In this document: positions 6,626 to 53,174 of the stretch, piece by piece
Position numbering within the stretch: the stretch's first letter is position 1
Layout: each line of letters begins with the position of its first letter
Source: Candidatus Cloacimonadales bacterium
GTDB taxonomy: Bacteria > Cloacimonadota > Cloacimonadia > Cloacimonadales > DAONDQ01
Assembly (NCBI GenBank): GCA_963662275.1
Contig: OY759316.1
Location: 480,001-544,000, forward strand
Length of the DNA stretch: 64,000 bases
Direction of reading: 5' to 3'
Translations under genes and position numbers: made by a program
The notes under the pieces: model-generated
Database searches by the model: none
Told to the model about the DNA's origin: nothing
The model's input: the letters and a program-made list of their open reading frames with translations, nothing else

Positions 6626-6677
6626 AAAATTGGAGCGCTGATTTCTTATCGGCGGATATGTCGCATTCTTTGCGACC

Positions 6678-6909
6678 AAGTCTGGAACGCCTCACCCCGT
6701 GAGGTGGCAAAACGCACCCCGTGCGTTTCAATCTTTAGTAAATCACTCAGTTCTTTTCTCATCTACGAACTCTAAATCACCAGTCAATTCATCAAGATCT
6801 TTCAAAAAAATAAATCTAACGTATTGTTCACTTGCAGCAGTGGTACTCATCAGTCTCACAGCGCACGGGGTGCGCTGTGCCACCTCACGGGGTGAGGCGT
6901 TCCAAACTT
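6678..6909. repeat. Inverted pair of ~51-bp double-hairpin elements (REPIN-like doublet)
   Basis: 6678-6728 matches the reverse complement of 6857-6909. Each copy has hairpins cctcac-ccc-gtgagg and NNNcgcac-ccc-gtgcgNNN. Confidence 0.9.
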
Positions 6910-30865: not shown

Positions 30866-31085
30866 AATTACTCCTTTATTATAATAACATTTATATTTAA
30901 GACATCCAAATCAGCAGAATACTTCAAATAAAGTTTATACTCTATATTCTAGTCTTTATTTCCCAGTTTCAAAGATAAATTGATTTTTGTGAATCCATAA
31001 CATAGAGCAAGAAGTATTTTTAATTTTGTTTTTCTTGCTTGTCAGGACATAATGAGGATTTTGGTCTTTGAAAGTGAGGATTTTC

Positions 31086-33746: not shown

Positions 33747-34251
33747 CGTTGAGTCCAACTCAGATTGTGGAATATGATTCCGATCTTACTGTATTGTAGT
33801 TTCTGTTGTGGAGTAAGATTCCGATCTTACTGAAAATAATAAAAGAAATACCTCGTGAAAATTTCAAAACCCAAGCATTTTAAATTGAGAATCATTACGA
33901 ATTCCATTTTCTCTTCAGTCTATCACGTTTTGGTTAATTTCATAGCTGTTTCTGGAGCGCCATCTATCTGATGGTGCTACGTGCTCTTTTAGAGGACGTA
34001 TTCTCTTCATCGGCATTTCGACACTTCGACACAGCTCAGTGGAACCTTCGCACAATGACCGAATGCGATGCTGAACGTTGCAACGAATTTATTCTTTTGC
34101 TGATTAATGGTTATTGAGCGAAGTCGAAATACATCAAATCAGCCCATTTAAATGGGTAAAAATCTAACAGTAGGGGCTGACGTCCCGGCAGCCTTATATC
34201 ACGCCCGGAGGTCGCGAACTACGGCAGTTGATCCAACGACTGAAGTTGTTG

Positions 34252-34288
34252 CTACCGAATCACCGTTATCTTCTGTTTCTGCTGTGCT
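34252..34288 (-). pseudogene. Orphan 3' tail of an FG-GAP/CTD gene (AQQKQKITVIR*)
   Basis: Nearly identical to the last codons of 35006-36652 and 51071-52715. Confidence 0.85.
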
Positions 34289-34391
34289 CTCCACCTCACT
34301 TCGCAGTGACGCAGTTACATTCAGCTATAAGGCTTGACGATGCCTTAGAATGGGACTTGCACTCTCTGATTTCTGTCTATCGCTATCGCAC
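34285..34391 (-). mobile_element. Truncated 5' end (domain I) of a group II intron
   Basis: Minus strand begins GTGCGATAGCG and continues gagagtgcaagtccc...tagctgaatgtaactgcgtcactgcgaagtgaggtggagagca. No RT ORF or domain V present. Confidence 0.7.
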
Positions 34392-34589
34392 TTGCTCCGC
34401 ATTTACGCGGTTGGTTTTTGTAGCTCCGCATTTACGCGGTTGGTCTTCGTAGCTCCGCATTTACGCGGTTGTAGAGCTGGATGCCGATCAAACTGTCTGC
34501 TATACAATCCGTAGGACGTAACCCCATTTCGAAATTCGACATCCGAAATTCGTTATATAGATCTCCGCTCTTCAACCAAAATCATTCCC

Positions 34590-34747
34590 CTTTATATATA
34601 CCTGGTCAAAACCAAGTTCAAACAAATACTAATCCTGTTTCATTTCAATTTCCCGAAACAGGATTGAAACAGGTATGAAACAGGATTGAAACAGGTATGA
34701 AACAGGATTGAACTTGGTATAATATACGTGGAATCATAGTGGATTGT
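34590..34747. repeat. Palindromic array of 11-bp repeats (aaacagg(at/ta)tg x5), inverted homolog of 12362-12510
   Basis: Five tandem 11-mers, a degenerate opposite arm and a shared ~38-bp flank. Confidence 0.88.
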
Positions 34748-34753
34748 GCAGGC

Positions 34754-34907
34754 GCAACGCCTTTTTTCAAAAGGTGGATAGGTCGTATCTAGTACGATAC
34801 AAGCTGATGTAACTCCATTATGTTATTGCATTAAGAAAGACTGGATTTGTTTGGTATTATGCATCATTTAAAAAATGACCTATCCACCTCACAAGATGAG
34901 GCGTTGC
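34754..34907. repeat. Inverted pair of 31-bp hairpin elements (same family as 6678-6909)
   Basis: gcaacgccttttttcaaaaggtggataggtc versus the reverse complement of 34877-34907, gcaacgcctcatcttgtgaggtggataggtc. Confidence 0.78.
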
Positions 34908-35005
34908 TGTGCCGTTGCACCTGTAGTGATTACTTCAGGAATCGTGTCAGCATGGTTTACCTTGCTTTTCGGAACGCTGTTTTCAAACGGCTTGCAATTT
35001 GGCAG

Positions 35006-36652
35006 CTACCGAATCACCGTAATTTTCTGTTTCTGCTGTGCTTCACCGCTGGTGAATACACACACATAAATCCCTGATGAAAGATCATTTAAATTGTAAG
35101 TCGCAGAACCGGATTTTGCTTGTTCTGCGTTCATAGAAAACGACTTGACTTTCTGTCCCCGGATATTATAGATTTCGAATGTAGAAGCTCCCCCCTTGGG
35201 AAGGGGGGTAGGGGGGTCAACAGTGAATCTGACGTTAAGTTCAGAATTCCAAGACTGCAGCGGGTTTGGATACAACTGCAGTTTGGAGATAGCAGGTGTA
35301 TTTGTATTATCCGATATGGGGGTTGGGTCATCCAGTTGCGTGTTTCCGGCATAGACAAATATACGACCAGGTGTAGGAAAACCAGCATAATCAAACGGTG
35401 CCGAAATAGCAGCATCGCAGCAGCCGTCTCCATTGTAATCGCCCATGGTCAGGCAGAAACCATACATGTCGGTTTCCACATCAAGATATGGTGGTGTCAA
35501 ATGCAGATCAGGACCTCCGTTCATAGGAATGCCTCCTATCCACAGGTAGGCGTCTCCATAACCGCTAAACTGGGTAACACTGGTGCCCATCAGATCATCT
35601 GTGCCATTACCATTCACATCGCCATGACCAAAGCCCTCACCGGCCGGATCGCCGCTGTACGGAGGAGCTATATTTACAAAGTCCGTTCCGTTAAAACCAG
35701 GACCTCCAAATATTAGTTTAGCATCTGAACCGGAGAAGGCACTCACGAAATCAGAATAACCATCGCCATTTACATCACCAGCGGGATATGTGAACGGATT
35801 TCTTAAGTTCGAACCATCACAGATAACTAAACTATCCTGAAAAACTCCAGATATGGAACCAAAATAAATGATATCTTTGCGATAAGTAGTATTACTTACA
35901 AAATACGTATAACAAAGACTGAAATCATCAATACCATCTGCATTCACATCTCCTACACCGCATATACTTGACCAGTCCCATGAAGAACCGGCTTCCATGA
36001 AAACAGTATTCATCATGTTTCCGCCATAAATAATACCAAAAGAGTTTGGAGCCTGATAATAATCTTTATCCAATATATATCCAAGATCTGCGAAACCATC
36101 GTGATTGATATCCCCCAAACCACGAACGTAATAAAAGGTATTATCCCATTCCTCCCTCGGGAAAGTAAGCACATAATCGGGGACAGTATCGGGATTCGCA
36201 CCGCCGTAAAAGACGCAGAGCTGCAAGTCATAGTACTGATCTATATTCTCTTCATACATCGTCGCCCGAAACAATGCCAGGTCATCTATCCCATCACCAT
36301 TCATATCGCCCGCATTGCACATGGAATATGAAAGTCCATATTCTATCTCATGGTGACCGGTGATTTCCATTTCAGGCACATTATCAAAATTGGGACCGCC
36401 AAAATAAAAGTATAGTTTACCATATGGATATGGTGGATAAGAAGGTGTATAACCTCTGGGATCCCAATTAGGTGATGCAATAACTAAATCATCGTTGCCA
36501 TCTCCATTCCAATCAAGAGTTGTCATGATTAATCCCATTCCGAAGAAATCATCTTCCCCTGTCATAGTGGTCATGATATCCATGTGGTTCAAGGCAGGGA
36601 GAATGCTGGTGAAAAGAAGAACAGCAAAAACAACTAAAATACCTTTATACAT
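35006..36652 (-). CDS. Secreted FG-GAP-repeat beta-propeller protein with T9SS/FlgD-Ig-like C-terminal domain (copy 1)
   Basis: Signal peptide, seven (G)DxNxDGxxD repeats, and YPNP...EIYNIRGQKV. Confidence 0.92.
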   Translation of the reverse strand: MYKGILVVFAVLLFTSILPALNHMDIMTTMTGEDDFFGMGLIMTTLDWNGDGNDDLVIASPNWDPRGYTPSYPPYPYGKLYFYFGGPNFDNVPEMEITGHHEIEYGLSYSMCNAGDMNGDGIDDLALFRATMYEENIDQYYDLQLCVFYGGANPDTVPDYVLTFPREEWDNTFYYVRGLGDINHDGFADLGYILDKDYYQAPNSFGIIYGGNMMNTVFMEAGSSWDWSSICGVGDVNADGIDDFSLCYTYFVSNTTYRKDIIYFGSISGVFQDSLVICDGSNLRNPFTYPAGDVNGDGYSDFVSAFSGSDAKLIFGGPGFNGTDFVNIAPPYSGDPAGEGFGHGDVNGNGTDDLMGTSVTQFSGYGDAYLWIGGIPMNGGPDLHLTPPYLDVETDMYGFCLTMGDYNGDGCCDAAISAPFDYAGFPTPGRIFVYAGNTQLDDPTPISDNTNTPAISKLQLYPNPLQSWNSELNVRFTVDPPTPLPKGGASTFEIYNIRGQKVKSFSMNAEQAKSGSATYNLNDLSSGIYVCVFTSGEAQQKQKITVIR

Positions 36653-36973
36653 TGGTACTCCTTATTTCTACAACCCACAGAATATAAAATATAATATTCA
36701 CACGTAATTTTCATTCCATAGCAAGTTTTATCCAGTATCTTGCCGGATATTATCCATTTTCTCTTTCATCTATCACGTTTCTGTTAATTGCATAGCTGTT
36801 TCTGGGTCGCCATCTATTTGATGGTGCTACGTGCTCTTTTAGAGGACGTATTCTCTTCATTGGCATTTCGATGGGGAAAATCTAACAGTAGTGGCTGACG
36901 TCCCGGCAGCCTTATATCACGCCCGGAGGTCGCGAACTACAGCAGTTGATCCAACGACTGAAGTGGTTGCTGC
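36653..36973 (-). repeat. Leader/spacer block shared with the second FG-GAP locus and with 33903-34253
   Basis: 36653-36760 is identical to the reverse complement of 50963-51070; similarity extends to 36904/50820. Confidence 0.93.
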
Positions 36974-37177
36974 TTAAATACGGTTATTTTTTGATTCTGC
37001 ATTCTATCTGTTCCCTGTCCTCTTCTAAAAATTAGATGAACTAATCCTTGACATCTGCTATTATCCTTTTAAATAATAACTCGTTAGCATTGTGTTCATA
37101 GAAAGTAGAGATTCCACATAAAATTTATAAAGTATATATTTATCAATAAAATAGAGTTTAAACTAACGAGGGGAGAG

Positions 37178-39262
37178 ATGTTTCATTATATTAAGAAACG
37201 CAATCAGCAATTAGAGAAATTTGATAAGGAAAAAATCGTCCAAGCCATGGCTAAAGCTGGAGAAGCGTCAGGTGAATTCGGAAGAGATACTGCCGAGAAA
37301 CTGACTCTTCGTGTCTTGAATCTAGCCCAGCAGGCAATAGACAAAGAACTGCCGGATGTGGAAGAGATCCAGGATATTGTGGAGGACGTTCTTCTTGCTT
37401 CTCCTTATCTGAAAACTGCTAAAGCTTATATCATTTATCGTGATCAACATGCCAAGATGCGTGAAGTTGTTTCTTCAGCGAATGTCAATATGATCGATCA
37501 GTATCTGCAGAAACTGGATTGGCAGGTGAACGAAAACAGCAATATGGCGTATTCTCTCCAAGGACTGAATAACTATATCGCCTCAGAAGTCTCAAAAGTC
37601 TATTGGCTGAACAAAGTCTATCCACCGCAAGTACGGCAATCACACTTGGAAGGAGCACTTCATATTCATGACCTGGGGCAAATATCAGTTTATTGTGTAG
37701 GCTGGGATTTGTATGACCTGCTGATGACAGGTTTCAAAGGTGCCTCAGCAAAAGTTGAGAGTGGTCCGGCAAGACATTTCCGAAGTGCTTTAGGGCAAAT
37801 TGTAAATTTCTTCTACACGCTCCAGGGTGAAGCTGCGGGTGCACAGGCATTTTCTCATTTTGATACACTGCTGGCTCCTTTCATCAGGCAGGATAATTTA
37901 AAATATACCGATGTGAAACAAGCAATGCAGGAATTTATCTTTAATATTAATGTACCTACAAGAGTTGGGTTCCAGACACCTTTCACCAATATTACTCTCG
38001 ATCTGAATCCACCCTCTATCTATGCTAACCAGCCAGTTGTGCTTGGAGGTGAGATATTGGAAACAACATATGCCGATTACCAGGTGGAAATGGATATGAT
38101 CAATCGGGCTTTCCTGGAAGTGATGATCGAAGGTGACAATAAAGGAAGAGTCTTCACTTTCCCCATTCCGACCTATAATATTACGAAAGATTTTGATTGG
38201 GATAATCCCGATCTTGAATATCTTTGGGATGTAACAGCTAAATATGGAATCCCTTATTTTTCCAATTTTGTGAATTCAGACCTCAGCCCGGAAGATTCAC
38301 GTTCCATGTGCTGTCGTTTGAGATTGGATACACGGAAATTACAGGCAAGGGGAGGAGGTCTTTTTGGTGCCAATCCACTCACAGGTTCAATAGGGGTAGT
38401 GACAATCAATCTTCCGCGTTTGGGATATCTTTCTTCAACGGAAGAAGAATTCTATACAAATTTGGAAAAGATCGTAAATATAGCAAAGAGCAGTTTGGAG
38501 ATCAAACGTAAGATCCTCGAACTCTGGACAGGCAACGGACTTTATCCCTATACGAAATTCTATCTGAAACAAGTGTATTCACATAATCATCAATACTGGT
38601 GCAATCACTTTTCCACGATTGGGATCATTGGTATGAATGAAGCATGTTTAAACTTGGTTGGACAGGATATCGGTACAGAGAAAGGCAGGATATTTGCCCT
38701 GAAGACAATGGATTTTCTCCGTGCTCTCTTACTCAAATTCCAGGAGGAAACCGGTAATAATTATAACCTGGAAGCAACTCCCGCAGAAGGAACAAGTTAT
38801 CGTCTTGCCAAGATAGATCGGGATAAGTATCCGGAAATACGTGTGGCTAATCGCGACGGAAGCAGTGATTCACCATTTTATACGAATTCCACCCAGCTTC
38901 CTGTTGATTATACAGATGATGTGTTTGAAATGCTGGATAAGCAGGATGAGCTTCAATCACGCTATACAGGCGGAACAGTGCTTCATTTATTTGCCGGTGA
39001 AAGAATAACAAACCCGGAAACTGTAAAAAAACTTGTACAAAAAATCTGTCATAATTATCGTTTACCATATTTTACGATAACACCGACATTCAGTATATGC
39101 CAAAATCACGGGTATATCACAGGTGAACACGAGAGATGTCCGATCTGTGATACAGAATGTGAAGTATATTCACGTATTGTTGGTTATTTAAGACCCGTTT
39201 CCCAGTGGAATGAAGGAAAAAGGGAAGAGTTCAAACAACGTAAGAATTTTGCTATTTCATAG
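37178..39262 (+). CDS. nrdD: Anaerobic ribonucleoside-triphosphate reductase with ATP cone
   Basis: ATP cone, SMCCRL, EATPAEG and the glycyl-radical motif YSRIVGYLRP. Confidence 0.97.
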   Translation: MFHYIKKRNQQLEKFDKEKIVQAMAKAGEASGEFGRDTAEKLTLRVLNLAQQAIDKELPDVEEIQDIVEDVLLASPYLKTAKAYIIYRDQHAKMREVVSSANVNMIDQYLQKLDWQVNENSNMAYSLQGLNNYIASEVSKVYWLNKVYPPQVRQSHLEGALHIHDLGQISVYCVGWDLYDLLMTGFKGASAKVESGPARHFRSALGQIVNFFYTLQGEAAGAQAFSHFDTLLAPFIRQDNLKYTDVKQAMQEFIFNINVPTRVGFQTPFTNITLDLNPPSIYANQPVVLGGEILETTYADYQVEMDMINRAFLEVMIEGDNKGRVFTFPIPTYNITKDFDWDNPDLEYLWDVTAKYGIPYFSNFVNSDLSPEDSRSMCCRLRLDTRKLQARGGGLFGANPLTGSIGVVTINLPRLGYLSSTEEEFYTNLEKIVNIAKSSLEIKRKILELWTGNGLYPYTKFYLKQVYSHNHQYWCNHFSTIGIIGMNEACLNLVGQDIGTEKGRIFALKTMDFLRALLLKFQEETGNNYNLEATPAEGTSYRLAKIDRDKYPEIRVANRDGSSDSPFYTNSTQLPVDYTDDVFEMLDKQDELQSRYTGGTVLHLFAGERITNPETVKKLVQKICHNYRLPYFTITPTFSICQNHGYITGEHERCPICDTECEVYSRIVGYLRPVSQWNEGKREEFKQRKNFAIS

Positions 39263-39270
39263 GATGGAAG

Positions 39271-39960
39271 ATGAAAATAGGCGGATTTCGTAAGTTCTCG
39301 ATGATCGATTACCCCAATCATTTGAGTGCTGTTATTTTCACACAGGGATGCAATTTTCGCTGTCCTTATTGCCATAATCCAGAACTCGTTGACCCGGCAC
39401 GTATGAAATCAGTGTTGGATACAGAAAAAATACTTTCTTTTCTTAAAATGAGAAGATTGAAACTGGATGCAGTCTGTATCACAGGGGGAGAGCCAACGAT
39501 TCAATCAGATATTGTGGAGTTTTGCCAGAGTATCAAGGATATGGGCTATCTAATCAAATTAGATACAAATGGCTCTTATCCGGATGTGCTTGAAAAGTTA
39601 TGCGCAAGCAAGTTAATTGATTTTGTGGCGATGGATATTAAAGCGCCACTGGACCGCTATGAATGGGTAACACAAGTACCCATTGATCCAAAAGTAATTG
39701 AGCAAAGTATTCAGATTTTGAGAAAATATAAGAAAGAACGAGAATTTCGGACGACTGTTGTTCATCCTCTATTAGGTCTGGCAGATATTGAGAAAATCAT
39801 GAGTATGTTTATTCGAGGTGAAACATATTGTCTGCAAAGATATGCCGGGAAGCAGACCTTGGATGCTAATCCAAAACAGTATTCTCCTTTTTCTTTTATG
39901 CTGATGCATACTGTTTCACAGAAAGCAGTACCTCAGGGAGTGAATTTGATATTGAGGTAA
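39271..39960 (+). CDS. nrdG: Anaerobic RNR activating radical SAM protein
   Basis: GCNFRCPYCHN; adjacent to nrdD. Confidence 0.93.
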   Translation: MKIGGFRKFSMIDYPNHLSAVIFTQGCNFRCPYCHNPELVDPARMKSVLDTEKILSFLKMRRLKLDAVCITGGEPTIQSDIVEFCQSIKDMGYLIKLDTNGSYPDVLEKLCASKLIDFVAMDIKAPLDRYEWVTQVPIDPKVIEQSIQILRKYKKEREFRTTVVHPLLGLADIEKIMSMFIRGETYCLQRYAGKQTLDANPKQYSPFSFMLMHTVSQKAVPQGVNLILR

Positions 39961-39976
39961 AGCTCCAACACAAGGA

Positions 39977-40001
39977 CTTACCCGCTGAAGTGGGGTGCTA
40001 C
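39977..40001 (-). repeat. GTAG REP-like element overlapping the ispF stop codon
   Basis: gtagcaccccacttcagcgggtaag on the minus strand; acttcag family. Confidence 0.7.
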
Positions 40002-40471
40002 TTCTCAAGCAGAACAACTGCGTGTGCTGTCATTCCTTCTTTAGTACCTGTTATTCCCATACCTTCTTCTGTTTTTGCCTTAATGGAAATATTGGCAATA
40101 TCCGTAAGTAAATCAACTGCAAGGAAACTGCGCATGGAATCAATATACGGTCTAAGTTTTGGTTCCTGGGCACAGATAGTGGAATCAAGATTCCCCACTT
40201 GATATCCTTTGGAAAGAACTAAAGCTATTGTTTCACGTAGCAACATACGGCTATCGCATCCCAGGTACTTCGGATCTGTATCCGGAAAAGCTTTTCCAAT
40301 ATCACCTTCACCGATAGCTCCAAGCAAAGCATCAATAATGGCATGGATTAGAACATCTGCATCTGAATGACCATCCAGACCTTTTTCGTAAGGAACAGCA
40401 ACACCACCAAGGATAAGAGGTCTTCCCTCTATAAGGCGATGTGCATCATATCCAAAACCAATCCGGAACAT
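39998..40471 (-). CDS. ispF: 2-C-methyl-D-erythritol 2,4-cyclodiphosphate synthase
   Basis: RIGFGYDAH, GHSDADV and GDIG..FPDTD motifs. Confidence 0.97.
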   Translation of the reverse strand: MFRIGFGYDAHRLIEGRPLILGGVAVPYEKGLDGHSDADVLIHAIIDALLGAIGEGDIGKAFPDTDPKYLGCDSRMLLRETIALVLSKGYQVGNLDSTICAQEPKLRPYIDSMRSFLAVDLLTDIANISIKAKTEEGMGITGTKEGMTAHAVVLLEK

Positions 40472-40479
40472 AGTAACCT

Positions 40480-43215
40480 CTAATCAACCGTAATAGATTT
40501 TGATACATTCTTAGGAACATCAGGATGAACCCCATGTTCCATAATACCTAAGCGGTCAAGATACTGCATTTTCTTCACACTCATCCTGAGAGCCAATAAT
40601 TGCAATACCACGGAAGATGAAAAGACGGTCATCAGACAATCTCCGGTACTGGGAAGAACAATATATCCCCAGCCATAATAAGCGGTTGCATCCGGGGAAG
40701 AGTTGGCATTTTTGCGAAGTTTGTCATTTTCTTCAGCGATAATGAACGTATCTGCTCCCCTGATTTTATGCGTGTTAATTTGTGAAATCGTCAGATTAAT
40801 ATCTCTTTCATCAGGACCAGTGACGTAGATTAGCGGGTAATTGCGGTACAAAGGCTCAAAGAAATCATTTTCAGAGACAATCTGCTTGAAAAGAGAAGTT
40901 GCTTCCTTGGATAGATTGAAGGGGAATGTTCGTGTAAACATATAGCTGCCTAATGCCTTGATGATTCGTCTGGATTCCTGCATGGGAATTCCCTTTTCCA
41001 TCGATCTTTCATCAATCATATCGATAAGAAGACTGAAATTGTTAACGACAGCTTTGATACTCTTCATTCCATACACGGTGTTCTTTCCCAAAATTGTGTT
41101 TGGTCCATGCTTAAACTCAGAGGCTTCACGTCCTTCTGAATGACACAACACCGTTTCCCTGATTTTCAGAGAACCTTCCATCGCAACACCACTGATCTTT
41201 GTTGCCAGGATATGCATCGATGGTTCCATATATACTTTATGAGCAACAGATTCGATTAAATCAGCAGTTGTATCAATCGTTTCCTTCAGTAAAAGAGGAA
41301 TATCATACATGGATTTATACCGCTTCTCCAGGCTATCTTCAAGTTCTTTGATAAGGGACTTATTTGCATTCTGGTTATGAAGACAGTCGATCTTAACTTC
41401 CAAGGAACGAACTGCTAAGTAATAGAATAAAGTTAACTGGTTCATGAAACTCTTGGTTGCCGGTACAGCGATTTCAGGACCGCAGAGTATTGGGATCGCC
41501 ACATCGCTCTTTTCCTGACCAAGTGTGGAATTCATGTTATTTACGAGAACCACTTTGTTGATACTCAGGTCAAGACCATCAAGGTCATCAAAGATATCGA
41601 TGAGGTCTTTTGTTTCACCACTCTGGGAAACTCCAATGATAAGATCATGATCTTTCATTGTATTTGAGTATTCACCACGAAAATCACCTGGTAATATGGG
41701 AATAATTTCAATCCTGGCAATCTCATTGAAGAAGAGAGCTGCCACTTTTGTGGCGTGGAAAGAAGTACCGCAGGCAATCGTATAGGTCAAACGATTATGG
41801 AGAATTGTATCCCGAATCAATTCCAGGAAGTGATCAATACAGCTATTGAAATCACTGACATCAGCGGTTTCCGTGATGGCATCCAGTGCTTTTGCCGTAA
41901 TGAGCTTATTCTTATCAAATTCTTCACCAATCAAATCGATAAAGGTATTCTTCTCGCTAGAGAAGAAGTACTTCTTTTCAAAATTCTCTTTCACAAGTTC
42001 AGCAAAGATACTGTTATATTCATTCTCAACCTTGCCTAAGAAAAACTTGGCGGTATCTGTTTGCATGAATTGATTGAAGACAGATTCACGCTGTTCAAAA
42101 TTCTCTGTATCAAGTATTGCCTGGGTTAGTTCTTCAAGATTCTTCAGTATGCCTTCCTGTTTTAACAAGCTGATCATGTGTTTTCCGGTATTGGAACCAC
42201 CCTGGAATAGCTTAATCAATTTTCCTGTTGACTCAGGCTGGGCATGGATTTCCTGTTCCATGAAATAATCGAATTCAGGCAGGAGCTCAGTATCTTCTGC
42301 ACGTAGTTTTGATCGTACCGGTTTGGATTCGATCATATCACCTTCGTTGTAGGATTCATCCTCTTGATTCAGTTTCTTGAAGCATAATTTCTTTTGGGCA
42401 TAGAGTTGGTAATGATCTGCAACAAACTCTACAAATTCACCCTCCCGCAATTTCACGAGCATTTTTGTAAATCTTAATACAGCCGTGAGATCTGAAGAAG
42501 CTAGACAAAACTGCATTCCTTCAATTTCTCCAACTCCAAAATAGAGACTGCTTCCAGATTTAATAGCATAACTAATCTCTGTTTCAGGGTCAACTACAAC
42601 TGCTGCGTAAGAACCAACAAGCTTTGATGATGCCTGGATAATCGCCTTTCTCATACATTTTCTGCGTATATCATGATTTTTATGATGATCCTTGTGTTCT
42701 TTATCAAGTTCAATATCAAAATAGTGTTCTATGGTATGAACAAGCATTTCACCATCATTATCTGAAAGAACTGTATGTCCTTCGCTCACCAGCCAGGTCT
42801 TTAACTCACGTGTATTGGTGATATTACCGTTATGAGCACCATACATGTGCCTTTTACATTTCACTTCATGAGGCTGGGCATTTGTCTGGGTCACATTTCC
42901 GAAAGTCGCCCATCGTACTTGACCGCAGAATATCTTTCCTTCCTGTTTATCAATTCCCAAGGTTTTAACCAAAGTACTGGGAGCGCCGACATCCTTAAGT
43001 AGAGTAATTTTTTTATTTTCATCCTGGAATGCCGCACCTGTGGAATCATAACCTCTATATTCAAGAGCTTTTAACAAAGTGGAAGCAAATTTGCCCATGT
43101 TGACAGAAGACTTGCTCAAACTTAAACCGAGAACACCACAGCCAATTCCAAATATTGGGATTCGTACCGTGAATGTCATTGAATCAAGAAATCGAATCAG
43201 CTTTTCTCTATTCAT
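40480..43215 (-). CDS. glmS: Atypical, long glutamine--fructose-6-phosphate aminotransferase
   Basis: CG..., LEYRGYDSTG, RWAT, HNGNI, ACGTS, SQSGET, EFKHGP and PKNVSKSITVD motifs; 911 aa. Confidence 0.85.
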   Translation of the reverse strand: MNREKLIRFLDSMTFTVRIPIFGIGCGVLGLSLSKSSVNMGKFASTLLKALEYRGYDSTGAAFQDENKKITLLKDVGAPSTLVKTLGIDKQEGKIFCGQVRWATFGNVTQTNAQPHEVKCKRHMYGAHNGNITNTRELKTWLVSEGHTVLSDNDGEMLVHTIEHYFDIELDKEHKDHHKNHDIRRKCMRKAIIQASSKLVGSYAAVVVDPETEISYAIKSGSSLYFGVGEIEGMQFCLASSDLTAVLRFTKMLVKLREGEFVEFVADHYQLYAQKKLCFKKLNQEDESYNEGDMIESKPVRSKLRAEDTELLPEFDYFMEQEIHAQPESTGKLIKLFQGGSNTGKHMISLLKQEGILKNLEELTQAILDTENFEQRESVFNQFMQTDTAKFFLGKVENEYNSIFAELVKENFEKKYFFSSEKNTFIDLIGEEFDKNKLITAKALDAITETADVSDFNSCIDHFLELIRDTILHNRLTYTIACGTSFHATKVAALFFNEIARIEIIPILPGDFRGEYSNTMKDHDLIIGVSQSGETKDLIDIFDDLDGLDLSINKVVLVNNMNSTLGQEKSDVAIPILCGPEIAVPATKSFMNQLTLFYYLAVRSLEVKIDCLHNQNANKSLIKELEDSLEKRYKSMYDIPLLLKETIDTTADLIESVAHKVYMEPSMHILATKISGVAMEGSLKIRETVLCHSEGREASEFKHGPNTILGKNTVYGMKSIKAVVNNFSLLIDMIDERSMEKGIPMQESRRIIKALGSYMFTRTFPFNLSKEATSLFKQIVSENDFFEPLYRNYPLIYVTGPDERDINLTISQINTHKIRGADTFIIAEENDKLRKNANSSPDATAYYGWGYIVLPSTGDCLMTVFSSSVVLQLLALRMSVKKMQYLDRLGIMEHGVHPDVPKNVSKSITVD

Positions 43216-44902: not shown

Positions 44903-44942
44903 TAAGCATGTGTCAGATCACCAGTACACGATTTTTCAAATA

Positions 44943-47177
44943 TTAAAATGTAGTACCGAATTGAAAATGAGGTTCCCAAGTATGCTTATCCAGGGCATAA
45001 GCATAATCAAAACCAATCAATCCAAAGGGGCTGCGGATACGAACTCCAGGTCCAATACCTTTCTTAAATAACAGAAAATTGACATCTTTCAAAGAAATAT
45101 AGCTGTTTCCGGCATCGAAGAACAACAGACCGGTTACGGTATCACCACCGATGGGATATGCCAATTCGGAAGAGAAAATGACAGCGCGTGTTCCGCCATC
45201 TGATGGTCCAATTGAACGATCAGCATATCCGCGTATACCATCCAAGCCTGTACCGCCTAAATAAAATCTTTCGTCAGGAGGTACTTCCTTTGTTCCAGCG
45301 AATGCTCTCACAAAGCTGGCACGCCATTTTGCCCTTAATGCTAATTTCATATAGGTTTGTGTATACCAGTTAACTTGCGCGATTTCCTTCATATAATTGA
45401 AATCACCACCAAAAGGACCACCGGCAACTTCTGTGTAAAATGTGATTTGTGAACCGGAAGTTGGGAAGAAGACATTATCTCGTGTATCCCTTGAATAAGT
45501 AAGAGAACCTGAACTGGTGTGTGTCCATCCTAATTTATCCAAGGCAATCAAATTTTGATTGGATACGGAATCTATCGATGACCAGTCGTTAATTCGATAT
45601 TTCTTTGTGTAATAGGAATAACTGCCGACGATTCGTGAGCGGTTGATTTGGTAAAGTGGAAAACCTAATCGAATAGATGCACCTTGGGTTGCTACTTCAT
45701 AATAGAAAGATGTCCATTCCTTTCTCGTGTTATATAAATTGAAACCGAAGAGCATATCACTATCATAGAGATTTGGATTCGTAAAATCATATTCGAAATT
45801 CTGCGTCGTTCCCCCAAATTCCCATTTAATACTCGTAGACCAGTTATTACCAAAGAGATTGTTTTGAGATACGCTGAATTGACCTACAAATTTATCTGTG
45901 CTATTATAACCAACACCGCCATTCGCAGTTCCGGAAGCTTTGTCTTTGACATTTACCGTTAAATCGATATCTCCATTATTATTGATTGGTTTATAAGATG
46001 GAACCATATCAGGTTCGAAGAAACCCAGGTTATAAATGTTCTGCTGAGACCTGATTACACGTGATTGCTGGAAATAATCACCTGGGGCAATCTCTAATTG
46101 TCTTCTCAGGACTTTTTCCTTTGTTTTCAAGTTTCCTGTAAGTAGTATTTTATGAATCTTGGCACGAGTGTTTTCAGTGATATTCAGATTGATATTTACT
46201 TTATCTCCGACTTTCTCAATTTCATGATCAAATTGAGAATAGATGTAGCCTTCTTCATAATAGAGCGAGGATACTGTCTGAAGCTGTTTGTCAAATTTCT
46301 CTAAGTTAAATACGTCATTTTCCTTGAACTTGAATTTGCTTTTTATCATTTCATCAGTAAAACGAATGTTGCCATGAACTTTTATCACACCAAATTTATA
46401 CTTCTGACCTTCAAATATGTTAATCTCGACTTGCATGTATTTCTGGTCAAGCTGGACCGTGTCCGCTGATACAATATGAGCATCGATATAACCTAAAGTA
46501 TTGTAATATTTAACGATATTATCCAAATCTGTATCCAGTTTTTCCTGTTCATATCGACCGGAGCGGAGCAGATTTGCCGATTTGGTTTTCATCTTCTTGA
46601 ACAGGTTTTTCGATGTTACTTCCTCGTTACCTCGAAAGACGATATGCTTGATCACAACTTTCTCACCTTCATGAACCAGGAGCGTGATATCTACTTTATT
46701 ACTAGGCAACGGATTTTCCTTGAACTTAACATTGGCTAGATTATACCCTTTTTTGACATAATCTGCAACTATCTTTGCCCGTGCTTGAGATGCGAGGAAT
46801 GGTGAATAATAGCTTCCCTTCTTCAAAGTGATCATGTCTTCTAATTTGGAATCTTTTCCTACCTTGTTCCCTGAGAATTCAACACTATTCACAATCGGAT
46901 ATTCCTTCACCTTCACAATCAATATGATCCCATCCTTATAAGGTTCGGAATCTAAAGAAACATCATCAAAAACACTCAAGTTATATAAATCTTTAATGGT
47001 CTTTGCTACAGCATCTTGAGAGACTGCATCTCCCACACCAATTGACATCGAAGAGATGATCAATGACTTCTGAACATTCTGATTTCCAACGATACGTATT
47101 TCATAAATTGTCTCATTTTCTGCCCAAAGAAAACAGGTGGCTAGCAGGATGATGATCATAATGATCCAACGGGGCAT
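44943..47177 (-). CDS. bamA: Outer membrane protein assembly factor BamA
   Basis: POTRA domains, IRGY motif, SPFGLIGFDY and a terminal Phe. Confidence 0.95.
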   Translation of the reverse strand: MPRWIIMIIILLATCFLWAENETIYEIRIVGNQNVQKSLIISSMSIGVGDAVSQDAVAKTIKDLYNLSVFDDVSLDSEPYKDGIILIVKVKEYPIVNSVEFSGNKVGKDSKLEDMITLKKGSYYSPFLASQARAKIVADYVKKGYNLANVKFKENPLPSNKVDITLLVHEGEKVVIKHIVFRGNEEVTSKNLFKKMKTKSANLLRSGRYEQEKLDTDLDNIVKYYNTLGYIDAHIVSADTVQLDQKYMQVEINIFEGQKYKFGVIKVHGNIRFTDEMIKSKFKFKENDVFNLEKFDKQLQTVSSLYYEEGYIYSQFDHEIEKVGDKVNINLNITENTRAKIHKILLTGNLKTKEKVLRRQLEIAPGDYFQQSRVIRSQQNIYNLGFFEPDMVPSYKPINNNGDIDLTVNVKDKASGTANGGVGYNSTDKFVGQFSVSQNNLFGNNWSTSIKWEFGGTTQNFEYDFTNPNLYDSDMLFGFNLYNTRKEWTSFYYEVATQGASIRLGFPLYQINRSRIVGSYSYYTKKYRINDWSSIDSVSNQNLIALDKLGWTHTSSGSLTYSRDTRDNVFFPTSGSQITFYTEVAGGPFGGDFNYMKEIAQVNWYTQTYMKLALRAKWRASFVRAFAGTKEVPPDERFYLGGTGLDGIRGYADRSIGPSDGGTRAVIFSSELAYPIGGDTVTGLLFFDAGNSYISLKDVNFLLFKKGIGPGVRIRSPFGLIGFDYAYALDKHTWEPHFQFGTTF

Positions 47178-47480
47178 ATTTCCTCCATGAAACGAACGAG
47201 TCAGCTACAATTTTTTCAGTATCTGCAAAGGGAAGGGATATACAATTTCCCATACTTAACAATCTTAGACTAAATGTGTAGGAACATATAATTCGTAAAG
47301 AATTTTTTCAGGATATTCATAGGAAACGTGATATATATCCTTATCAGCTTTCATAGTGAGTTCCTATATTGATGGAAAAAGAAAATTTGTTTCTCCTGTT
47401 ATTCATAATATTATATCTCTGGAATGATGCATAGAGTTAACCGAATCAACTGCGAATAAATATAAAAAGGGTCTGATTAC

Positions 47481-47509
47481 AAGGGCAACCATTTAAGGTT
47501 GCCCTTTTT
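47481..47509 (+). terminator. Terminator-like hairpin in the divergent bamA/peptidase gap
   Basis: aagggcaacc-atttaa-ggttgcccttttt. Confidence 0.65.
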
Positions 47510-47601
47510 CTCTTCTCAACAGCTTTTACGTTATAAATTTCTTGCTAGATTCGAATTGCTAAGGAGACTTGATTCTACTTCAGATGAGGGTGGTATAATT
47601 C

Positions 47602-50505
47602 ATGAAAATAAAACACATTTACTTGATATTTCTAATCAACCTAGGCTTATTCAGTATCGCTTGGGCACATCCCAAATTCTATCAACCTCAATCTTTACCT
47701 TCCTATGAAGAAAGTTGTGAACGTGCTGATTCCCTGCATGGCTTTGATGTTCAAAAATATACTATCACATTGAATATCAACGATACATCACATTATATTT
47801 CGGGGAACGTTGTTGCTGATGTCCGTGCAACTTCCAATCTCGATGCTATTGATTATAACCTTGTCGGATTGAATGTCACCCAAGTCCTGGTCAATGACTT
47901 GGCAAACGCATATACAGTGGCAAATGGATTAGTTCATATCCCTCTCAGCGGAATATCCAATGACATGAATTTTACAACCAAAGTGGTATATTCCGGTACA
48001 CCTTCACTCAGCCCGACGATTTATCAAATTGGCATAATCTTCTCTTCTACAATGGTATTCACTCTTTCTGATCCTGATGCCAGCAGGAATTGGTGGCCCT
48101 GTTATGACCACCCTTGGGATAAGGCTGTTATTGACCTTCATATTACGATGCGAAGTGATTGGCTGGTGGCTTGCAATGGCATTCGCGATTCTATCATTGA
48201 TAATGGTGATGGCACAAAGACAACCAACTGGCTTGGTTCCAACCCTATGATTCCATATTTGGCATGTATAACAGCATCTAATTATCGTGAAATTAACCAA
48301 AACTATGGGACTATTCCCATCATGAATTTTGTCTCCAATGCCCAATATAACAATGCTGTCGCAGATTTTGCCAGCCTGCCTGCAATGATGAGTGTCTTTT
48401 CTCAGAAATATGGTAATTATCCCTTTGAAAAATATGGAAATGCTGTCGTCAATATGACCACTTTTGGAGCCATGGAACACCAGACGATGACGACAATGGG
48501 CAGCAGTTTCATCACAGGAAATCAATCCGGTCAATACACGATTGCCCATGAGTTAGCTCACAGTTGGTATGGAAACTGCCTTTCTCCCCTGACATTCAGG
48601 GATGTCTGGCTATCGGAAGGATTTGCTACGTATTCCGAAGCAGTATGGGAAGAAAGCCAACGTGGTTTTGGTTCAATGAGTAACTATATTGAATCACAAT
48701 TCCATAGTGTGTATTTAAACTGGGAGTCGGTTTCCAGTCCCCGTACGATATACAATCCTTCATTCAATAATTATTTCAGTCCACCTTCTTATGAAAAATC
48801 AGCTTCTGTTCTTCACATGCTGAGACTGCAAGTAGGTAATGCCAATTTCTGGAATATCATGCAGACCTGGTTTAGCAGTCATCATAACGGAAATGTTACT
48901 ACAGAGGAATTTGAAGCTCTTTGCGAATCTATCAGCGGACAGGATTTGCACCAGTTCTTCCAGCAATGGATCTATTCAGCAGGGATTCCTTCTATACAAT
49001 ATGCTTATTTTTTTGGACCGGCGGATTTCGAAAATATGCGAGTACCAGTGAAGATATTTGCAAAAACCACATGTCTATCGGGTGGAGAGTTCTATATGAA
49101 ACTCCCCATGTTGTTTGATGCCTATGATATAACCGATTCATTAGTTGTCGATGCTGTTCCAAATCCAGTGAATCCTCCTACTCAAATGATATCATATAGT
49201 GCGAATAATTCATGGTTTGATGTGGATATTAATCATTGGACACTAAATCGTGGTCTAACTCAAATGATGCCTTCCACACCACAGGTATTTCCTTCAAATA
49301 ATAGCGTCTATGTGTCTTGGCAGCCATTCTGGTCACAAGTACCGAATATCCGCTACAACATTTATCGCGTACAGGAAGGTGATTTGATTATTCGCAAGAT
49401 TCATACGACAGGAATCAATGAAACATATTACCTGGATACAACTGCTCAGAATGGGCAAAGCTATCAATACAGGATTACAGCCTTGTATAATAACGTGTAT
49501 GAATCGAATTATACGCAATGGGTTACAGCCATCCCTACCGACTTTGCCATGGACCAGGGACTGCTTGTTATTGATGAAACCCGTGATGGTGCAGGTACTG
49601 CCATTTCTCCAACGGATGTTACGGTTGATGATTTCTATAATTCTGTTTTAAGCATCGTTACTCATACGAACTATGACATAAATACTTCCGGCACACCTGC
49701 CTTGGAATTACTCAGTCATTATTCTACAGTGCTTTATCATGATGATGATTTCAGCAGTCATTCCATCCAGAATATAACCGATATTCTTGGAAGCTATGTG
49801 ATTGGAGGTGGAAACCTGATCATATCCGGTTGGAAAACTGCCGGGCAAATTCCCCAATCCTTCCTGGATATCTTTTTTCCTGGTATCCAAGTGAATTATG
49901 ATGGAACAGCAGATTTCATCTCTGCTCAATCTTCGACCTACCCCAGTTTGGTTCTCAATCCTGTTAAACTATCAAGTGTTTGGAATGGACATTTAAGTAT
50001 GGTGGAGACATTCACCAATATAACGAATCCAATTTATACCGGTAATTTCGTAGAAGGCAGTACATTCCAGGGACAGGCAATGGTAATTCAAACTGAACAA
50101 AATGGTCATCTTATCCTCTTGGGTTTTCCTCTATTTGTCATGATGAATGATGGAGTACAAGGTTTTCTAAATCAACTTCTCATGGAAATTGACCCCGCTG
50201 TTTCCAACAACGATATCTCTCAACCACAATTTACGGCTTCTCTCTCCATATACCCAAATCCTTTTTGCAGTAGCGCTTCAATTAAATATTCAACTCCAAA
50301 AGAGGGAAGGATAGAGATTTCTGTCTATAACCTTCGTGGCCAGAAAGTGAAAACCCTACTGAATGGAGATTCTCGTTACGGTATCAACACTCTTTCCTGG
50401 AAGGGACTGGATGATAATGGTAACCAGGTTGCAACAGGTATCTATTTCTGCAAAATGATAGTAAATGGGCAAAAACTCACGAAAAGAATGTTATTCATTA
50501 AGTAG
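47602..50505 (+). CDS. Secreted M1 aminopeptidase with FN3-like and T9SS/FlgD-Ig C-terminal domains
   Basis: GAMEH and HELAH-x18-E; YPNPF...VYNLRGQKV. Confidence 0.92.
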   Translation: MKIKHIYLIFLINLGLFSIAWAHPKFYQPQSLPSYEESCERADSLHGFDVQKYTITLNINDTSHYISGNVVADVRATSNLDAIDYNLVGLNVTQVLVNDLANAYTVANGLVHIPLSGISNDMNFTTKVVYSGTPSLSPTIYQIGIIFSSTMVFTLSDPDASRNWWPCYDHPWDKAVIDLHITMRSDWLVACNGIRDSIIDNGDGTKTTNWLGSNPMIPYLACITASNYREINQNYGTIPIMNFVSNAQYNNAVADFASLPAMMSVFSQKYGNYPFEKYGNAVVNMTTFGAMEHQTMTTMGSSFITGNQSGQYTIAHELAHSWYGNCLSPLTFRDVWLSEGFATYSEAVWEESQRGFGSMSNYIESQFHSVYLNWESVSSPRTIYNPSFNNYFSPPSYEKSASVLHMLRLQVGNANFWNIMQTWFSSHHNGNVTTEEFEALCESISGQDLHQFFQQWIYSAGIPSIQYAYFFGPADFENMRVPVKIFAKTTCLSGGEFYMKLPMLFDAYDITDSLVVDAVPNPVNPPTQMISYSANNSWFDVDINHWTLNRGLTQMMPSTPQVFPSNNSVYVSWQPFWSQVPNIRYNIYRVQEGDLIIRKIHTTGINETYYLDTTAQNGQSYQYRITALYNNVYESNYTQWVTAIPTDFAMDQGLLVIDETRDGAGTAISPTDVTVDDFYNSVLSIVTHTNYDINTSGTPALELLSHYSTVLYHDDDFSSHSIQNITDILGSYVIGGGNLIISGWKTAGQIPQSFLDIFFPGIQVNYDGTADFISAQSSTYPSLVLNPVKLSSVWNGHLSMVETFTNITNPIYTGNFVEGSTFQGQAMVIQTEQNGHLILLGFPLFVMMNDGVQGFLNQLLMEIDPAVSNNDISQPQFTASLSIYPNPFCSSASIKYSTPKEGRIEISVYNLRGQKVKTLLNGDSRYGINTLSWKGLDDNGNQVATGIYFCKMIVNGQKLTKRMLFIK

Positions 50506-50630
50506 CCACCACTTCAGTGAGTATTCCGTAGCAACAACTTCAGTCGTTGGATCAACTGCTTCAGCAGTTATAATGTTTTAACATTATCTGACATCTGGTG
50601 GTTTCCCCATTTAAATGGGCTGATTTGATG
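50502..50630 (+). repeat. REP mosaic starting at the peptidase stop codon
   Basis: gtagccaccacttcagtg (50502) and gtagcaacaacttcagtcgttgg (50528). 50521-50610 recurs at 52707 and 52871. Confidence 0.88.
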
Positions 50631-50746
50631 CACAAAGATCGGCATCTTACTTCAGAAGAAAGACAAGGGAAATTCGACTGGAACATAAAGCAACAATGAA
50701 CCAGCCCTAAGTACACATTGAACGAAACACTGTATAATTGCTATAT

Positions 50747-50815
50747 CATTACGGTAGCATTACGGTTTTTTACCGTAATGCTACCGTATTGCTACCGTAT
50801 TGGTACCGTAGTGCT
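50747..50815. repeat. Palindromic array of 11-bp repeats (accgtaNtgct family)
   Basis: cattacggtag cattacggt - ttttt - accgtaatgct accgtattgct accgtattggt accgtagtgct. Confidence 0.88.
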
Positions 50816-50819
50816 CTTA

Positions 50820-51070
50820 GGGACGTCAGCCCCTACTGTTAGATTTTCCCCATCGAAATGCCGATGAAGAGAATACGTCCTCTAAAAGAGCACGTAGCAC
50901 CATCAGATAGATAGCGCCCCAGAAACAGCTATGAAATTAACAAAACGTGATAGACTAAAGTGAAAATGGATAATATCCGGCAAGATACTGGATAAAACTT
51001 GCTATGGAATGAAAATTACGTGTGAATATTATATTTTATATTCTGTGGGTTGTAGAAATAAGGAGTACCA
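50820..51070 (+). repeat. Leader/spacer block of FG-GAP copy 2
   Basis: Inverted homolog of 36653-36904; contains the triple-hairpin module at 50851-50917. Confidence 0.93.
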
Positions 51071-52715
51071 ATGTATAAAGGTATTTTAGTTGTTTTAGCT
51101 GTTCTTCTTTTCACCAGCATTCTCCCTGCGTTGAACCACATGGATATATGACCACCATGACAGGGGAATTTGATTTTGCAGAAATGGGTTGGATCATGAC
51201 CACGCTCGACTGGAATGGTGATGGTTTTGATGATCTCGTTGCAGTTGAGAATCAATGGAGTCCAAATGGATTTACTCCAACACCTCCTCCATTCCCATAT
51301 GGCAAACTTTATGTCTATTTTGGTGGACCGAATTTTGATAGTATCCCGGAAATGGAAATACCTGGAACGCATGAGATCGAATATGGGCATACTGCCTCTA
51401 TGTGCAATGCGGGCGATATGAATGGCGATGGTATTGATGATCTGGCATTATTCAGAGCCACGATGTATGAAGGAACAAGTGACCAGAATTATGATTTGCA
51501 GCTCTGCGTCTTTTACGGCGGTGCCACACCCGATACAATCCCCGATTATGTCCTCACTTTCCCAAGAGAGGAATGGAACAACCAATATTGCTTTGTACGG
51601 GGACTCGGAGACATTAATCTTGATGGTCACGATGAATTAGGATATGACATGGTAAGAATAGGATATCCATGTCGGATTAAATTTGGTATCATCTATGGTG
51701 GAAGCATGGAAAATACCGATTTTAGAGAAATCAGTAATATACAGGATACTCCAAATATTACAGGTATAGGCGATATAAATGGAGATGGAATCAGTGACTT
51801 CACCATTGGGTATTGCTATGGCTCAAGCATAAATCCGCTTTATAGGATTATTGCTTATTATGGAAATTCATCCAGTGCCTATGATGATAGTTTGGTTATT
51901 CATGATTCAGAAGTTTCATGCAGCTCATTTTCATATCCTGCAGGCGATGTTAATGGTGATGGTTATTCTGATTTTATCAGCGTTTTTACTGGGTCAAGTG
52001 CCAATCTTTACTTTGGAGGACCAGGTATAGATGGGACTAATTTCGTGAATATCTCACCACCTTATCATGGCGATGCTGGCGGTGAAGGTTTTGCCCATGG
52101 TGACGTGAACGGCAATGGCACAGATGATCTGATGGGTTCATTTTGTTCCCAAGCTAACGGTTATGGTGATGCTTACCTGTGGATGGGAGGAGTACCCATG
52201 AACGGTACACCCGATCTGCATATTACACCTCCAACCCTGGATATGAATACAGATATGTTCGGTTTCTGCCTAACCATGGGAGATTACAATGGAGACGGCT
52301 GCTGCGATGCTGCTATTTCAGCTCCCTTTGATTATGCTGCTTTTGGAACTCCAGGACGTGTATTTGTCTATGCTGGAAACCAGCAACTCAACGATCCCAC
52401 TCCTATTGCAGATAATACAGAGACACCTGTCATTTCCAAACTGCAGTTGTACCCGAATCCGCTGCAGTCTTGGAATTCTGAACTTAATGTCAGATTCACT
52501 GTTGACCCCCCTACCCCCCTTCCCAAGGGGGGGGTATTAGTTTTGAAATCTACAACATCAGGGGACAAAAAGTCAAGTCGTATACCATCACAGCAGAGCA
52601 AGTTAAAGCCGGTTCTGCGAGTTACAATCTGAACGATCTTTCATCGGGGGTTTATGTGTGTGTATTCACCAGCAGTGAAGCACAGCAGAAACAGAAGATA
52701 ACGGTGATTCCGTAG
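51071..52715 (+). pseudogene. FG-GAP beta-propeller/CTD protein copy 2 with two single-base frameshifts
   Basis: A C is missing at 51147/8 (gatat-atg versus gatatcatg), and a G8 run at 52527-52534 shifts the CTD out of frame. 1645 bp + 2 equals 1647 bp, the length of copy 1. Confidence 0.88.
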
Positions 52716-53027
52716 CAACAACTTCAGTCGTTGGATCAACAGCTTTAGCCGTTATAATGTTTTAACATTATCTGACATCCGGTGGTTTCCCCATCGAAAT
52801 GCCGATGAAGAGAATACGTCCTCTAAAAGAGCACGTAGCACCATCAAATAGATGGCGCCCCCTGAAACAGGTATTCCGTAGCAACAACTTCAGTTGTTAG
52901 ATCAACAGCTTTAGCCGTTATAATGTTTTAACATGATCTGACATCCGGTGGTTTCCCCATCGAAATGCCGATGAAGAGAATACGTCCTCTAAAAGAGGAC
53001 GTAGCACTATCAAACAGATGGCGCCCC
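52707..53027 (+). repeat. Tandem duplication of a 166-bp REP mosaic unit
   Basis: gtagcaacaacttcag..., ataatgtt-tt-aacattat, and the triple-hairpin module at 52792 and 52958. Confidence 0.92.
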
Positions 53028-53174
53028 AATGGCACTCAATTTAGCTTCATTCAGTCATCTCTTACATGCTACAAGCTATTAGCTATAAGCTTCTTCCCTC
53101 CATTTTCTTTGACAAAACATGATTACTTTTATAAAAATGGTATTCATATCATCAAACCTTGATAAGGAGTTTTC

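Follow-up and report, generated by a model that had tools for sequence, protein, structure and literature searches.

A mosaic family of genes for predicted secreted FG-GAP propellers and its REP-containing spacers in a Cloacimonadota genome

Background

A 64,000-nt stretch of a Candidatus Cloacimonadales genome (hereafter the window; C1:480001-544000 of the closed genome G000, 4.38 Mb, 39% GC) holds two genes, copy 1 and copy 2, for predicted secreted proteins with an FG-GAP propeller. Both genes are preceded by the same non-coding leader and by spacers built from repetitive extragenic palindromes (REPs) and other hairpin modules, and they are alike at their ends and different in their middles. 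A first-pass annotation made from the window read them as cassette-like units of gene and spacer that are gained, lost and shuffled through the REP mosaics. The question raised by this locus is how such genes are varied and how they come to stand where they do. The two genes were found to belong to a family of 23 mosaic members, which probably diversifies and spreads by RecA-type or microhomology recombination, with the REP mosaics and the gene tails as its likely handles.

Census of the family and its predicted protein

Searches of G000 with tblastn recovered 23 full-length copies and one half gene at nine loci, many more than the pair from which the first-pass annotation had started. The loci are arrays of nine (2535-2554 kb), six (3690-3702 kb), two and two copies, four single genes, two of which are those in the window, and the half gene at 961.5 kb. 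Subfamily A comprises ten copies, both window genes among them, and subfamily B the other 13, whose proteins are 34-41% identical to those of A. The reading frame is intact in 22/23 copies, and a TAG stop closes all 23. All four arrays end in a partner gene of ~1500 aa that carries a tail domain (two open reading frames (ORFs) at one locus); the single copies stand without it. For this giant partner (G000 positions 1848575, 2530561, 2895405 and 3701823; L028:7434-11891), Pfam and NCBIfam returned the tail domain only, and an atlas search with its N-terminal part led to unnamed clusters and weak glycoside-hydrolase leads under 0.9. Named homologues of the family were mainly from Candidatus Cloacimonadota.

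An AlphaFold2 model predicted a seven-bladed propeller followed by the tail (mean predicted local distance difference test score, pLDDT, of 89). Each of the seven FG-GAP blades carries one DxNGDGxxD-type calcium motif, as in integrin-type propellers. The top Foldseek matches were all integrin alpha (E 4e-13, whole-chain TM 0.33-0.50), and the profile match was likewise to integrin alpha heads. The tail scored 39 bits against PF18962 (cut-off 27) and 35 bits against TIGR04183 (cut-off 23), which identifies it as a type A sorting domain of the type IX secretion system (T9SS). Together with an N-terminal hydrophobic helix in the predicted model, it marks the protein as predicted T9SS cargo. The secretion machinery was searched for by using two components, SprA_N and PorV, and both scored above cut-off in G000. 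A T9SS-type tail was found in 266 genes among 2936 called ORFs by using our own profile; genome-wide in G000, 115/266 tail-domain genes end in TAG, compared with 738/2936 genes overall.

Five bacterial examples of integrin-type seven-bladed propellers were described by Chouhan et al. 2011 (PMC3192720), and these have the same seven FG-GAP blades and calcium motifs. The family differs from them in the fusion to a T9SS-type tail and in its 23 recombining copies, dynamics of a kind that the abstract of that article does not mention. The fold and the loop variation described below suggest that the family proteins are likely variable secreted or surface binders. By analogy, they would most likely mediate calcium-dependent adhesion or act together with the giant partner encoded beside the arrays. 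Literature searches found no paper on FG-GAP in Cloacimonadota or on the type IX C-terminal domain in Cloacimonetes.

Mosaic structure of the genes

Copy 1 (1647 nt) and copy 2 (1645 nt) are 73% identical at the nucleotide level. In 60-nt windows, identity is 0.97 at the 5' end, 0.53-0.67 mid-gene and up to 0.92-1.0 near the 3' end. The non-uniform divergence expected by the first-pass annotation was thus borne out by these sliding windows, and also by tests for mosaicism across the family. Identical tracts of at least 80 nt (80-1284 nt) numbered 51 in A and 40 in B, among copies that are 66-96% alike overall. The pairwise homoplasy index (PHI) was 0.28 vs 0.55 and 0.45 vs 0.63 (0/1000 permutations each), and a silent-site run statistic gave 0/500 each for A and B; together, the two tests reject clonal descent. 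Tract ends are scattered within the genes, spread over 42 separate 10-residue bins in A and 37 in B, and most shuffling occurs within genes rather than of whole units.

Copy 1 is a near-complete patchwork of segments common to other copies: every 90-nt window of it has a partner with at least 80 matches, and the partner changes along the gene. The middle of copy 2 has no close match among the other copies. In a short-read-type contig from run X1, which may be the source sample, a tract common to copy 1 and the copy at 3696075 had a depth of 63.5, compared with 35-38 for unique DNA, and this nearly doubled depth makes an assembly chimaera unlikely.

As assembled, copy 2 contains two 1-nt frameshifts, one near 51146 and one in a G-run at 52527-52534. 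The latter is crossed gaplessly by one single-depth X1 contig, with 23 nt on one side; near the former, contigs collapse paralogues. The body of copy 2 was identical wherever covered in four runs from four samples, in contigs, which drop rare variants.

Variation is concentrated on one predicted face of the propeller. Top-face loops differ at 34-42% of residues and calcium loops at 10-16%, with faces assigned by predicted strand order and the integrin convention. Pairwise amino acid difference in the C-terminal domain is 9% in A and 33% in B, so that the highly similar C-terminal domain noted earlier holds for A and not for B. The proportion of nonsynonymous differences (pN) was below that of synonymous differences (pS) in 28/28 pooled windows and in every loop class, and dN/dS of the propeller was 0.25 (A) and 0.14 (B). 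The alleles are strongly diverged at silent sites (pS 0.45-0.62). The excess of pS throughout argues for old alleles that have been recombined, and neither rapid mutagenesis nor fast diversifying selection was detected in the pooled pN/pS windows. Of the diversifying repertoire proposed from the window, the mosaic structure and the most variable top-face loops are present, with no sign of fast diversifying selection in the pN/pS values.

One further source of variation lies in the tail. A loop at residues 481-489, modelled with low confidence (pLDDT ~56), is encoded by an in-frame REP-like palindrome (Table 1) in seven A genes and by a different palindrome in three. The copy-2 counterpart lies at 52504-52534, and the second frameshift falls in its G-run. 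In close homologues (P0010-P0025) the loop is empty or is formed by two further palindrome-type peptides, giving four kinds in all. From these sequences, REP-like elements appear to have been repeatedly inserted or exchanged at one coding site of the tail. Rickettsia palindromic elements also insert in-frame in genes. The two cases share a dispersed palindrome read in-frame as a surface loop; here the site is one loop of one domain, which may be empty or hold any of the four peptides. Elsewhere in the window, a radical SAM gene (31068-33746) contains three 26-nt in-frame repeats (D10, at ~31720-31870) that resemble the REP flanking a Y1 transposase at genome 2410 kb, a further case of REP sequence inserted into a reading frame.

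Leaders, spacers and REP1

The 108-nt leader has nine copies in the genome, each immediately preceding a family gene (7 A, 2 B), and may act as a promoter; a promoter scan of 50500-51100 was uninformative (2 sites vs 1.8 expected). Neither the leader nor the copy-1 spacer folds more stably than shuffled sequences; the triple-hairpin module of the spacers does (z -3.1). A search of window positions 33000-54000 against Rfam gave three matches, all far under the gathering score.

The REP with the motif acttcag, here called REP1, occurs genome-wide in 28 clusters, 11 near the family and 17 free. The triple hairpin occurs in 14 clusters (10 near family genes), and two linker modules are confined to the family's vicinity (9/9 and 8/8 clusters). 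A composite running from REP1 to the triple hairpin stands without a gene at 3666545; this and the 17/28 free REP1 clusters indicate that landing pads exist. Repeats in general are common, making up 28% of the intergenic DNA outside the propeller family.

A gene for a REP-associated tyrosine transposase (RAYT), which the first-pass annotation had suggested might be encoded elsewhere, was found at genome 2272298-2273017. It is intact (228 aa; NF047646, 92.7 bits against a cut-off of 80), and a REP1 doublet lies ~300 nt upstream, so that the gene is flanked by GTAG-footed hairpin repeats as in known REP/RAYT pairs. Three other flank modules adjoin other Y1 transposase genes, and the genome has 15 Y1 matches in total.

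The modules and tails reported by the first-pass annotation are all in place (Table 1): two paralogs with a near-identical signal peptide, the identical leader, the spacer modules, an orphan tail with a gene-less spacer, and a decayed tail before the copy-1 spacer. Its statement that the same modular spacer lies upstream of both genes needs one amendment, since the modules recur and, in copy 2, a ~220-nt block separates the hairpin from the REP.

Table 1 Positions within the window of the propeller genes, their spacers and associated features
Feature	Position	Strand	Description
Spacer downstream of copy 1	33903-34255	minus	REP1 foot (34232-34255), second hairpin, further REP modules, triple-hairpin, leader-proximal module
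Orphan 3' tail of family gene	34252-34324	minus	TAG is REP1 foot; preceded by 34-nt block (D6)
Mosaic of other REP/REPIN modules	34330-35005		downstream of gene 1
Copy 1	35006-36652	minus	intact 548-aa subfamily-A gene: signal peptide, seven-bladed FG-GAP propeller, T9SS-type tail
In-frame REP-like palindrome in copy 1	35189-35218	minus	111 genome copies; encodes tail-domain loop between two strands
Leader of copy 1	36653-36760	minus	108 nt, ribosome-binding site
Spacer upstream of copy 1	36761-36973	minus	REP1 (36950-36973), hairpin (36881-36904), triple-hairpin (36803-36879), leader-proximal module
Decayed tail of diverged tail-domain gene	36972-37000	minus	fused to REP1 foot
Host gene, M1 peptidase	47602-50505	plus	T9SS-type tail; TAG stop starts degenerate REP1 half-copy
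Spacer upstream of copy 2	50503-50962	plus	degenerate REP1, REP1 (50528-50551), terminator-like hairpin, ~220 nt of other repeats
Spacer upstream of copy 2, remainder		plus	hairpin (50820-50843), triple-hairpin (50845-50920), leader-proximal module
Leader of copy 2	50963-51070	plus	108 nt, identical to copy-1 leader
Copy 2	51071-52715	plus	subfamily-A gene, frameshifted as assembled; TAG is REP1 foot
Two tandem 166-nt units	52712-53027	plus	REP1, linker and triple hairpin; downstream of copy 2 (D2, D3)

Edges of the gene and spacer units

The upstream edge of the DNA shared by the family coincides with the REP1 foot, within ~35 nt, at 6/9 loci, and the downstream unit edges differ at every locus. 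The first, often degenerate, REP1 foot overlaps a tail-domain TAG or a tail remnant in 8/11 family-linked clusters and in 0/17 free ones. These eight clusters comprise five intact genes, copy 2, the orphan tail and the decayed tail, the last counted by hand. Three host genes are tail-domain genes unrelated to the family, including the M1 peptidase of the window, whose TAG is the upstream edge of the copy-2 unit. The nominal Fisher p of 5e-5 for the foot-at-stop pattern overstates the case because the loci share ancestry. Genome-wide, repeats start at the stops of 4/29 tail-domain genes and 18/182 other genes that end in GTAG, compared with 0-6% of other stops. This is a mild general trend of repeats at GTAG stops, and it does not explain the family pattern. 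By GC skew, five loci lie on the leading strand and four on the lagging strand, with no bias.

Direct repeats flank both window genes (set D2-D6). The first-pass annotation had noted the same modules on both sides of copy 2, and D2 and D3 cover the tandem units downstream of it, which match the sequence following the copy at genome 3888474 with 94% identity across 322 nt. Downstream of copy 1, the spacer at 33903-34255 leads to no gene and is a direct repeat of parts of the copy-1 upstream spacer (D4, 124 nt, 90%; D5, 119 nt, 92%). The adjoining orphan tail (34251-34288) is 95% identical to the tail of gene 1, and the 34-nt block with tail is also present at genome 2539063 and 3889022. Pieces of the mosaic between orphan tail and gene 1 are 90-97% identical to genome 2538914-2539789, which lies inside the nine-gene array. 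The decayed tail matches in register with the REP at 19/27 nt, a score reached by 0/300,000 random positions, and the best of the other 28 REP copies gave 14 matches. Five of its eight changed codons differ at the third position only.

Similar remnants occur at other loci. The half gene and the spacer meet in 8 nt of microhomology. At 3928 kb, 39 kb away from the nearest copy, a REP mosaic encloses 50 nt of a gene tail. The flanks of distant loci consist of colinear pieces that are 87-97% identical and are themselves patchworks. The proposal that units of gene and spacer are gained, lost and shuffled is thus upheld in that such units, gene-less spacers, orphan tails and a half gene exist, and falls short in that the shuffling is mostly intragenic.

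No transposase, tyrosine recombinase or reverse transcriptase (RT) was found among the window ORFs scanned (six proteins in Pfam). The earlier statement to this effect holds for the proteins scanned, and all three are abundant in the genome outside the window. Genome-wide, 13 identical tyrosine-recombinase frames of 294 codons were counted, along with 17 RT frames of 412-465 codons in multi-copy sets and a single 896-codon RT frame at 3093771. The spacer modules also recur as inverted repeats I3-I12. Elsewhere in the window, a long inverted repeat (6670-6917) overlaps the start of a type ISP-like restriction-modification gene (6856-9963) with a methylase and a specificity domain.

Comparison with relatives

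Homologues at E<=1e-20 were present in 15/40 relatives, with at most 34 candidates scored per genome. The congener G001 keeps the order bamA, M1 peptidase, slot and alpha-2-macroglobulin gene. In its slot (L025, compared with window 50506-53174), a different FG-GAP/tail-domain gene and a 220-aa gene stand instead of copy 2, and the interval between the M1 peptidase and alpha-2-macroglobulin genes may be a variable slot for secreted-protein genes. At the copy-1 site, G001 has another gene upstream of nrdD and no family gene; on the radical-SAM side the contig ends inside that gene. At its syntenic sites G001, the sole congener of G000 compared, has neither window copy, and synteny is accordingly not fixed. 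The family copies of G001 precede the giant partner wherever the downstream side is assembled (C22, C84, C141, C166), and none of the G000 spacer modules was found near any of them. Among sequencing-run contigs, no in-register empty-site joint was found. Joints listed as empty-site candidates were rejected: they were interrupted by unknown letters, were short on a side or skipped the wrong length, and they fit other repeat copies.

In G021, from another family of the order, 15 copies at 11 loci share 36 tracts of 80-563 nt among the 14 aligned. No long leader is common to the family copies of G021, and one hairpin stands, in 6/7 of its copies, no more than 300 nt downstream of a family gene. 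Of the 11 loci in G021, two share the site of a family locus in its congeners G027 or G039, three share nearby DNA only and six share nothing. This dispersal and mosaicism point to a trait of the family, with the window spacer as one lineage's version, and dispersal without a shared leader indicates that the spacer is not required for it. On G021:C1, the minus strand holds 14/15 family copies (10/11 loci) and 7/7 downstream hairpins, unlike in G000, G027 and G039.

Mechanism and alternatives

Under RecA-type and microhomology recombination, the most likely mechanism, the family would have started as one or two genes before the ~1500-aa tail-domain partner, as in G001. In this lineage, RAYT-associated REPs would have become established in front of a subfamily-A gene as well as at gene stops, and tandem amplification would then have created a junction of tail, TAG, REP1, spacer, leader and gene. 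Copies of this junction may then have recombined with REP clusters already in place, or with other tail-domain genes whose 3' ends resemble theirs. Circle integration or conversion-like copying would have left behind the direct repeats (as at both window loci), the orphan tails and the half gene. Ongoing segmental gene conversion would mix old loop alleles on the predicted ligand face into a standing repertoire. RecA and RuvB are encoded in the genome.

Several observations weigh against this reading. The upstream end of the unit is unexpectedly fixed near the REP1 foot. A single crossover would leave a REP1 downstream, and none is present at 961 kb, 1855 kb and 2642 kb. Donor and host tails match only briefly and imperfectly (17/24 nt for the M1 peptidase tail), which is thin for RecA. 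A strict k-mer test placed only 3/18 outer edges in or beside genome-wide repeats, so that the location of edges in REPs rests partly on junctions read by eye. Finally, the comparison of sites is with G001, which is only ~64-79% alike in DNA.

An unlikely alternative is that the RAYT at 2272298-2273017, or a relative, cuts REP1 and transfers a single strand with spacer, leader and gene, preferring tail-domain TAG stops. The unit would then have a fixed start and a variable end, as its upstream and downstream edges do, and the stop or remnant under the foot in family-linked clusters would mark the target. The flanking of an intact RAYT gene by REP1 and the exact start of free REP1 copies at the GTAG foot fit this scheme, as does the report that the TnpA-REP of E. 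coli cuts DNA across >400 nt surrounding a REP and performs strand transfer in vitro (PMC3333891). However, homology-driven landing yields the same fixed end, the host-stop junctions are not clean (1-2 mismatches in 8 nt), and the balance of loci between strands gives no sign of a strand preference. Free REP1 copies never lie at stops, which indicates that the RAYT alone shows no stop-target preference. The G021 hairpin, placed just downstream of family genes, would be a parallel, but it lies on the 3' side and is not linked to a RAYT. We found no paper on a RAYT moving passenger genes. The junction pattern is compatible with a RAYT moving the unit and is not diagnostic of it. The fuller version, in which a domesticated RAYT moves a 2-3 kb unit (REP mosaic, promoter and propeller gene) onto the stops of secreted genes and swaps palindromes in the secretion tail, redistributing surface binders, is doubtful in like measure.

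It is also improbable that old duplications were simply followed by gene conversion, with REP mosaics accumulating later or being copied passively and having no role in placement. The high pS between alleles, the frequency of REPs across the genome and the G001 copies without these modules nearby would suit such a history. Against it, the 87-97% identical flanks of distant loci are colinear with the gene and far younger than the alleles, the two linker modules are restricted to the surroundings of the family, the edges of units fall at the REP1 foot, and the window sites are occupied by other genes in G001.

Least probable is a dedicated programmed system, whether integron-like cassettes, a diversity-generating retroelement (DGR) or an expression site with silent donors, an idea already largely refuted even though subfamily A has a constant leader and ends, orphan tails and one frameshifted copy exist, and the genome encodes tyrosine recombinases and RTs. 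Integron cassettes repeat a gene with a hairpin as a unit, in tandem arrays. Here no IntI scored above cut-off (TIGR02249, best 106 vs 265 bits), and attC core pairs after the 23 stops numbered zero. The genes have their own leaders, the cargo is of one family and the edges are imprecise. With downstream ends that differ and tract ends that scatter, the term cassette-like is not supported in the integron sense. A DGR was rejected because variation spans 1.3 kb of propeller, the A tail is the most constant part and silent changes exceed replacements; no template-repeat search was made. A single expression site with silent donors appears unlikely, as 22/23 copies are intact with upstream leaders, and the constancy of the copy-2 body across samples likewise speaks against programmed change.

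Relation to known systems

The components belong to known kinds. Borrelia vlsE/vmp, Anaplasma msp2 and Treponema tprK undergo antigenic variation by segmental gene conversion, which in relapsing-fever Borrelia begins at flanking blocks of homology that carry inverted repeats (PMC4534519). As in these systems, segmental exchange among paralogues occurs here, and mosaic genes are assembled from paralogue tracts between constant ends. In contrast to them, the family shows no sign of a single expression site or silent archive, nearly all copies are intact with leaders, and pN is below pS; nor is the family known to act in the setting of host immunity. The tandem array of full copies described for Ehrlichia in that review is closer.

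REP, BIME and REPIN elements with a RAYT (TnpA-REP) are described for the E. coli REPtron (PMC3333891) and Pseudomonas REPINs (PMC3116915), and REP clusters have been described as recombination hot spots (PMC11708052). Those accounts share with the present case GTAG-footed hairpins that flank a RAYT gene and mosaic clusters formed by insertion into or beside REPs. Unlike in known REP/RAYT systems, the REP mosaic here goes with one family of protein-coding genes and stands at one end of the duplicated unit.

Conclusions

In an anaerobic lineage that has been little studied, these genes offer a well-resolved repertoire of likely surface proteins that is not archived, has essentially all copies intact and is shuffled by recombination, and they behave likewise in other families of the order. 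It also provides a concrete substrate for the open question of what RAYTs and REPs do for their hosts. If the RAYT does move the unit, REP systems would extend to gene mobilisation; if it does not, the family would be a tidy example of REPs as recombination handles.

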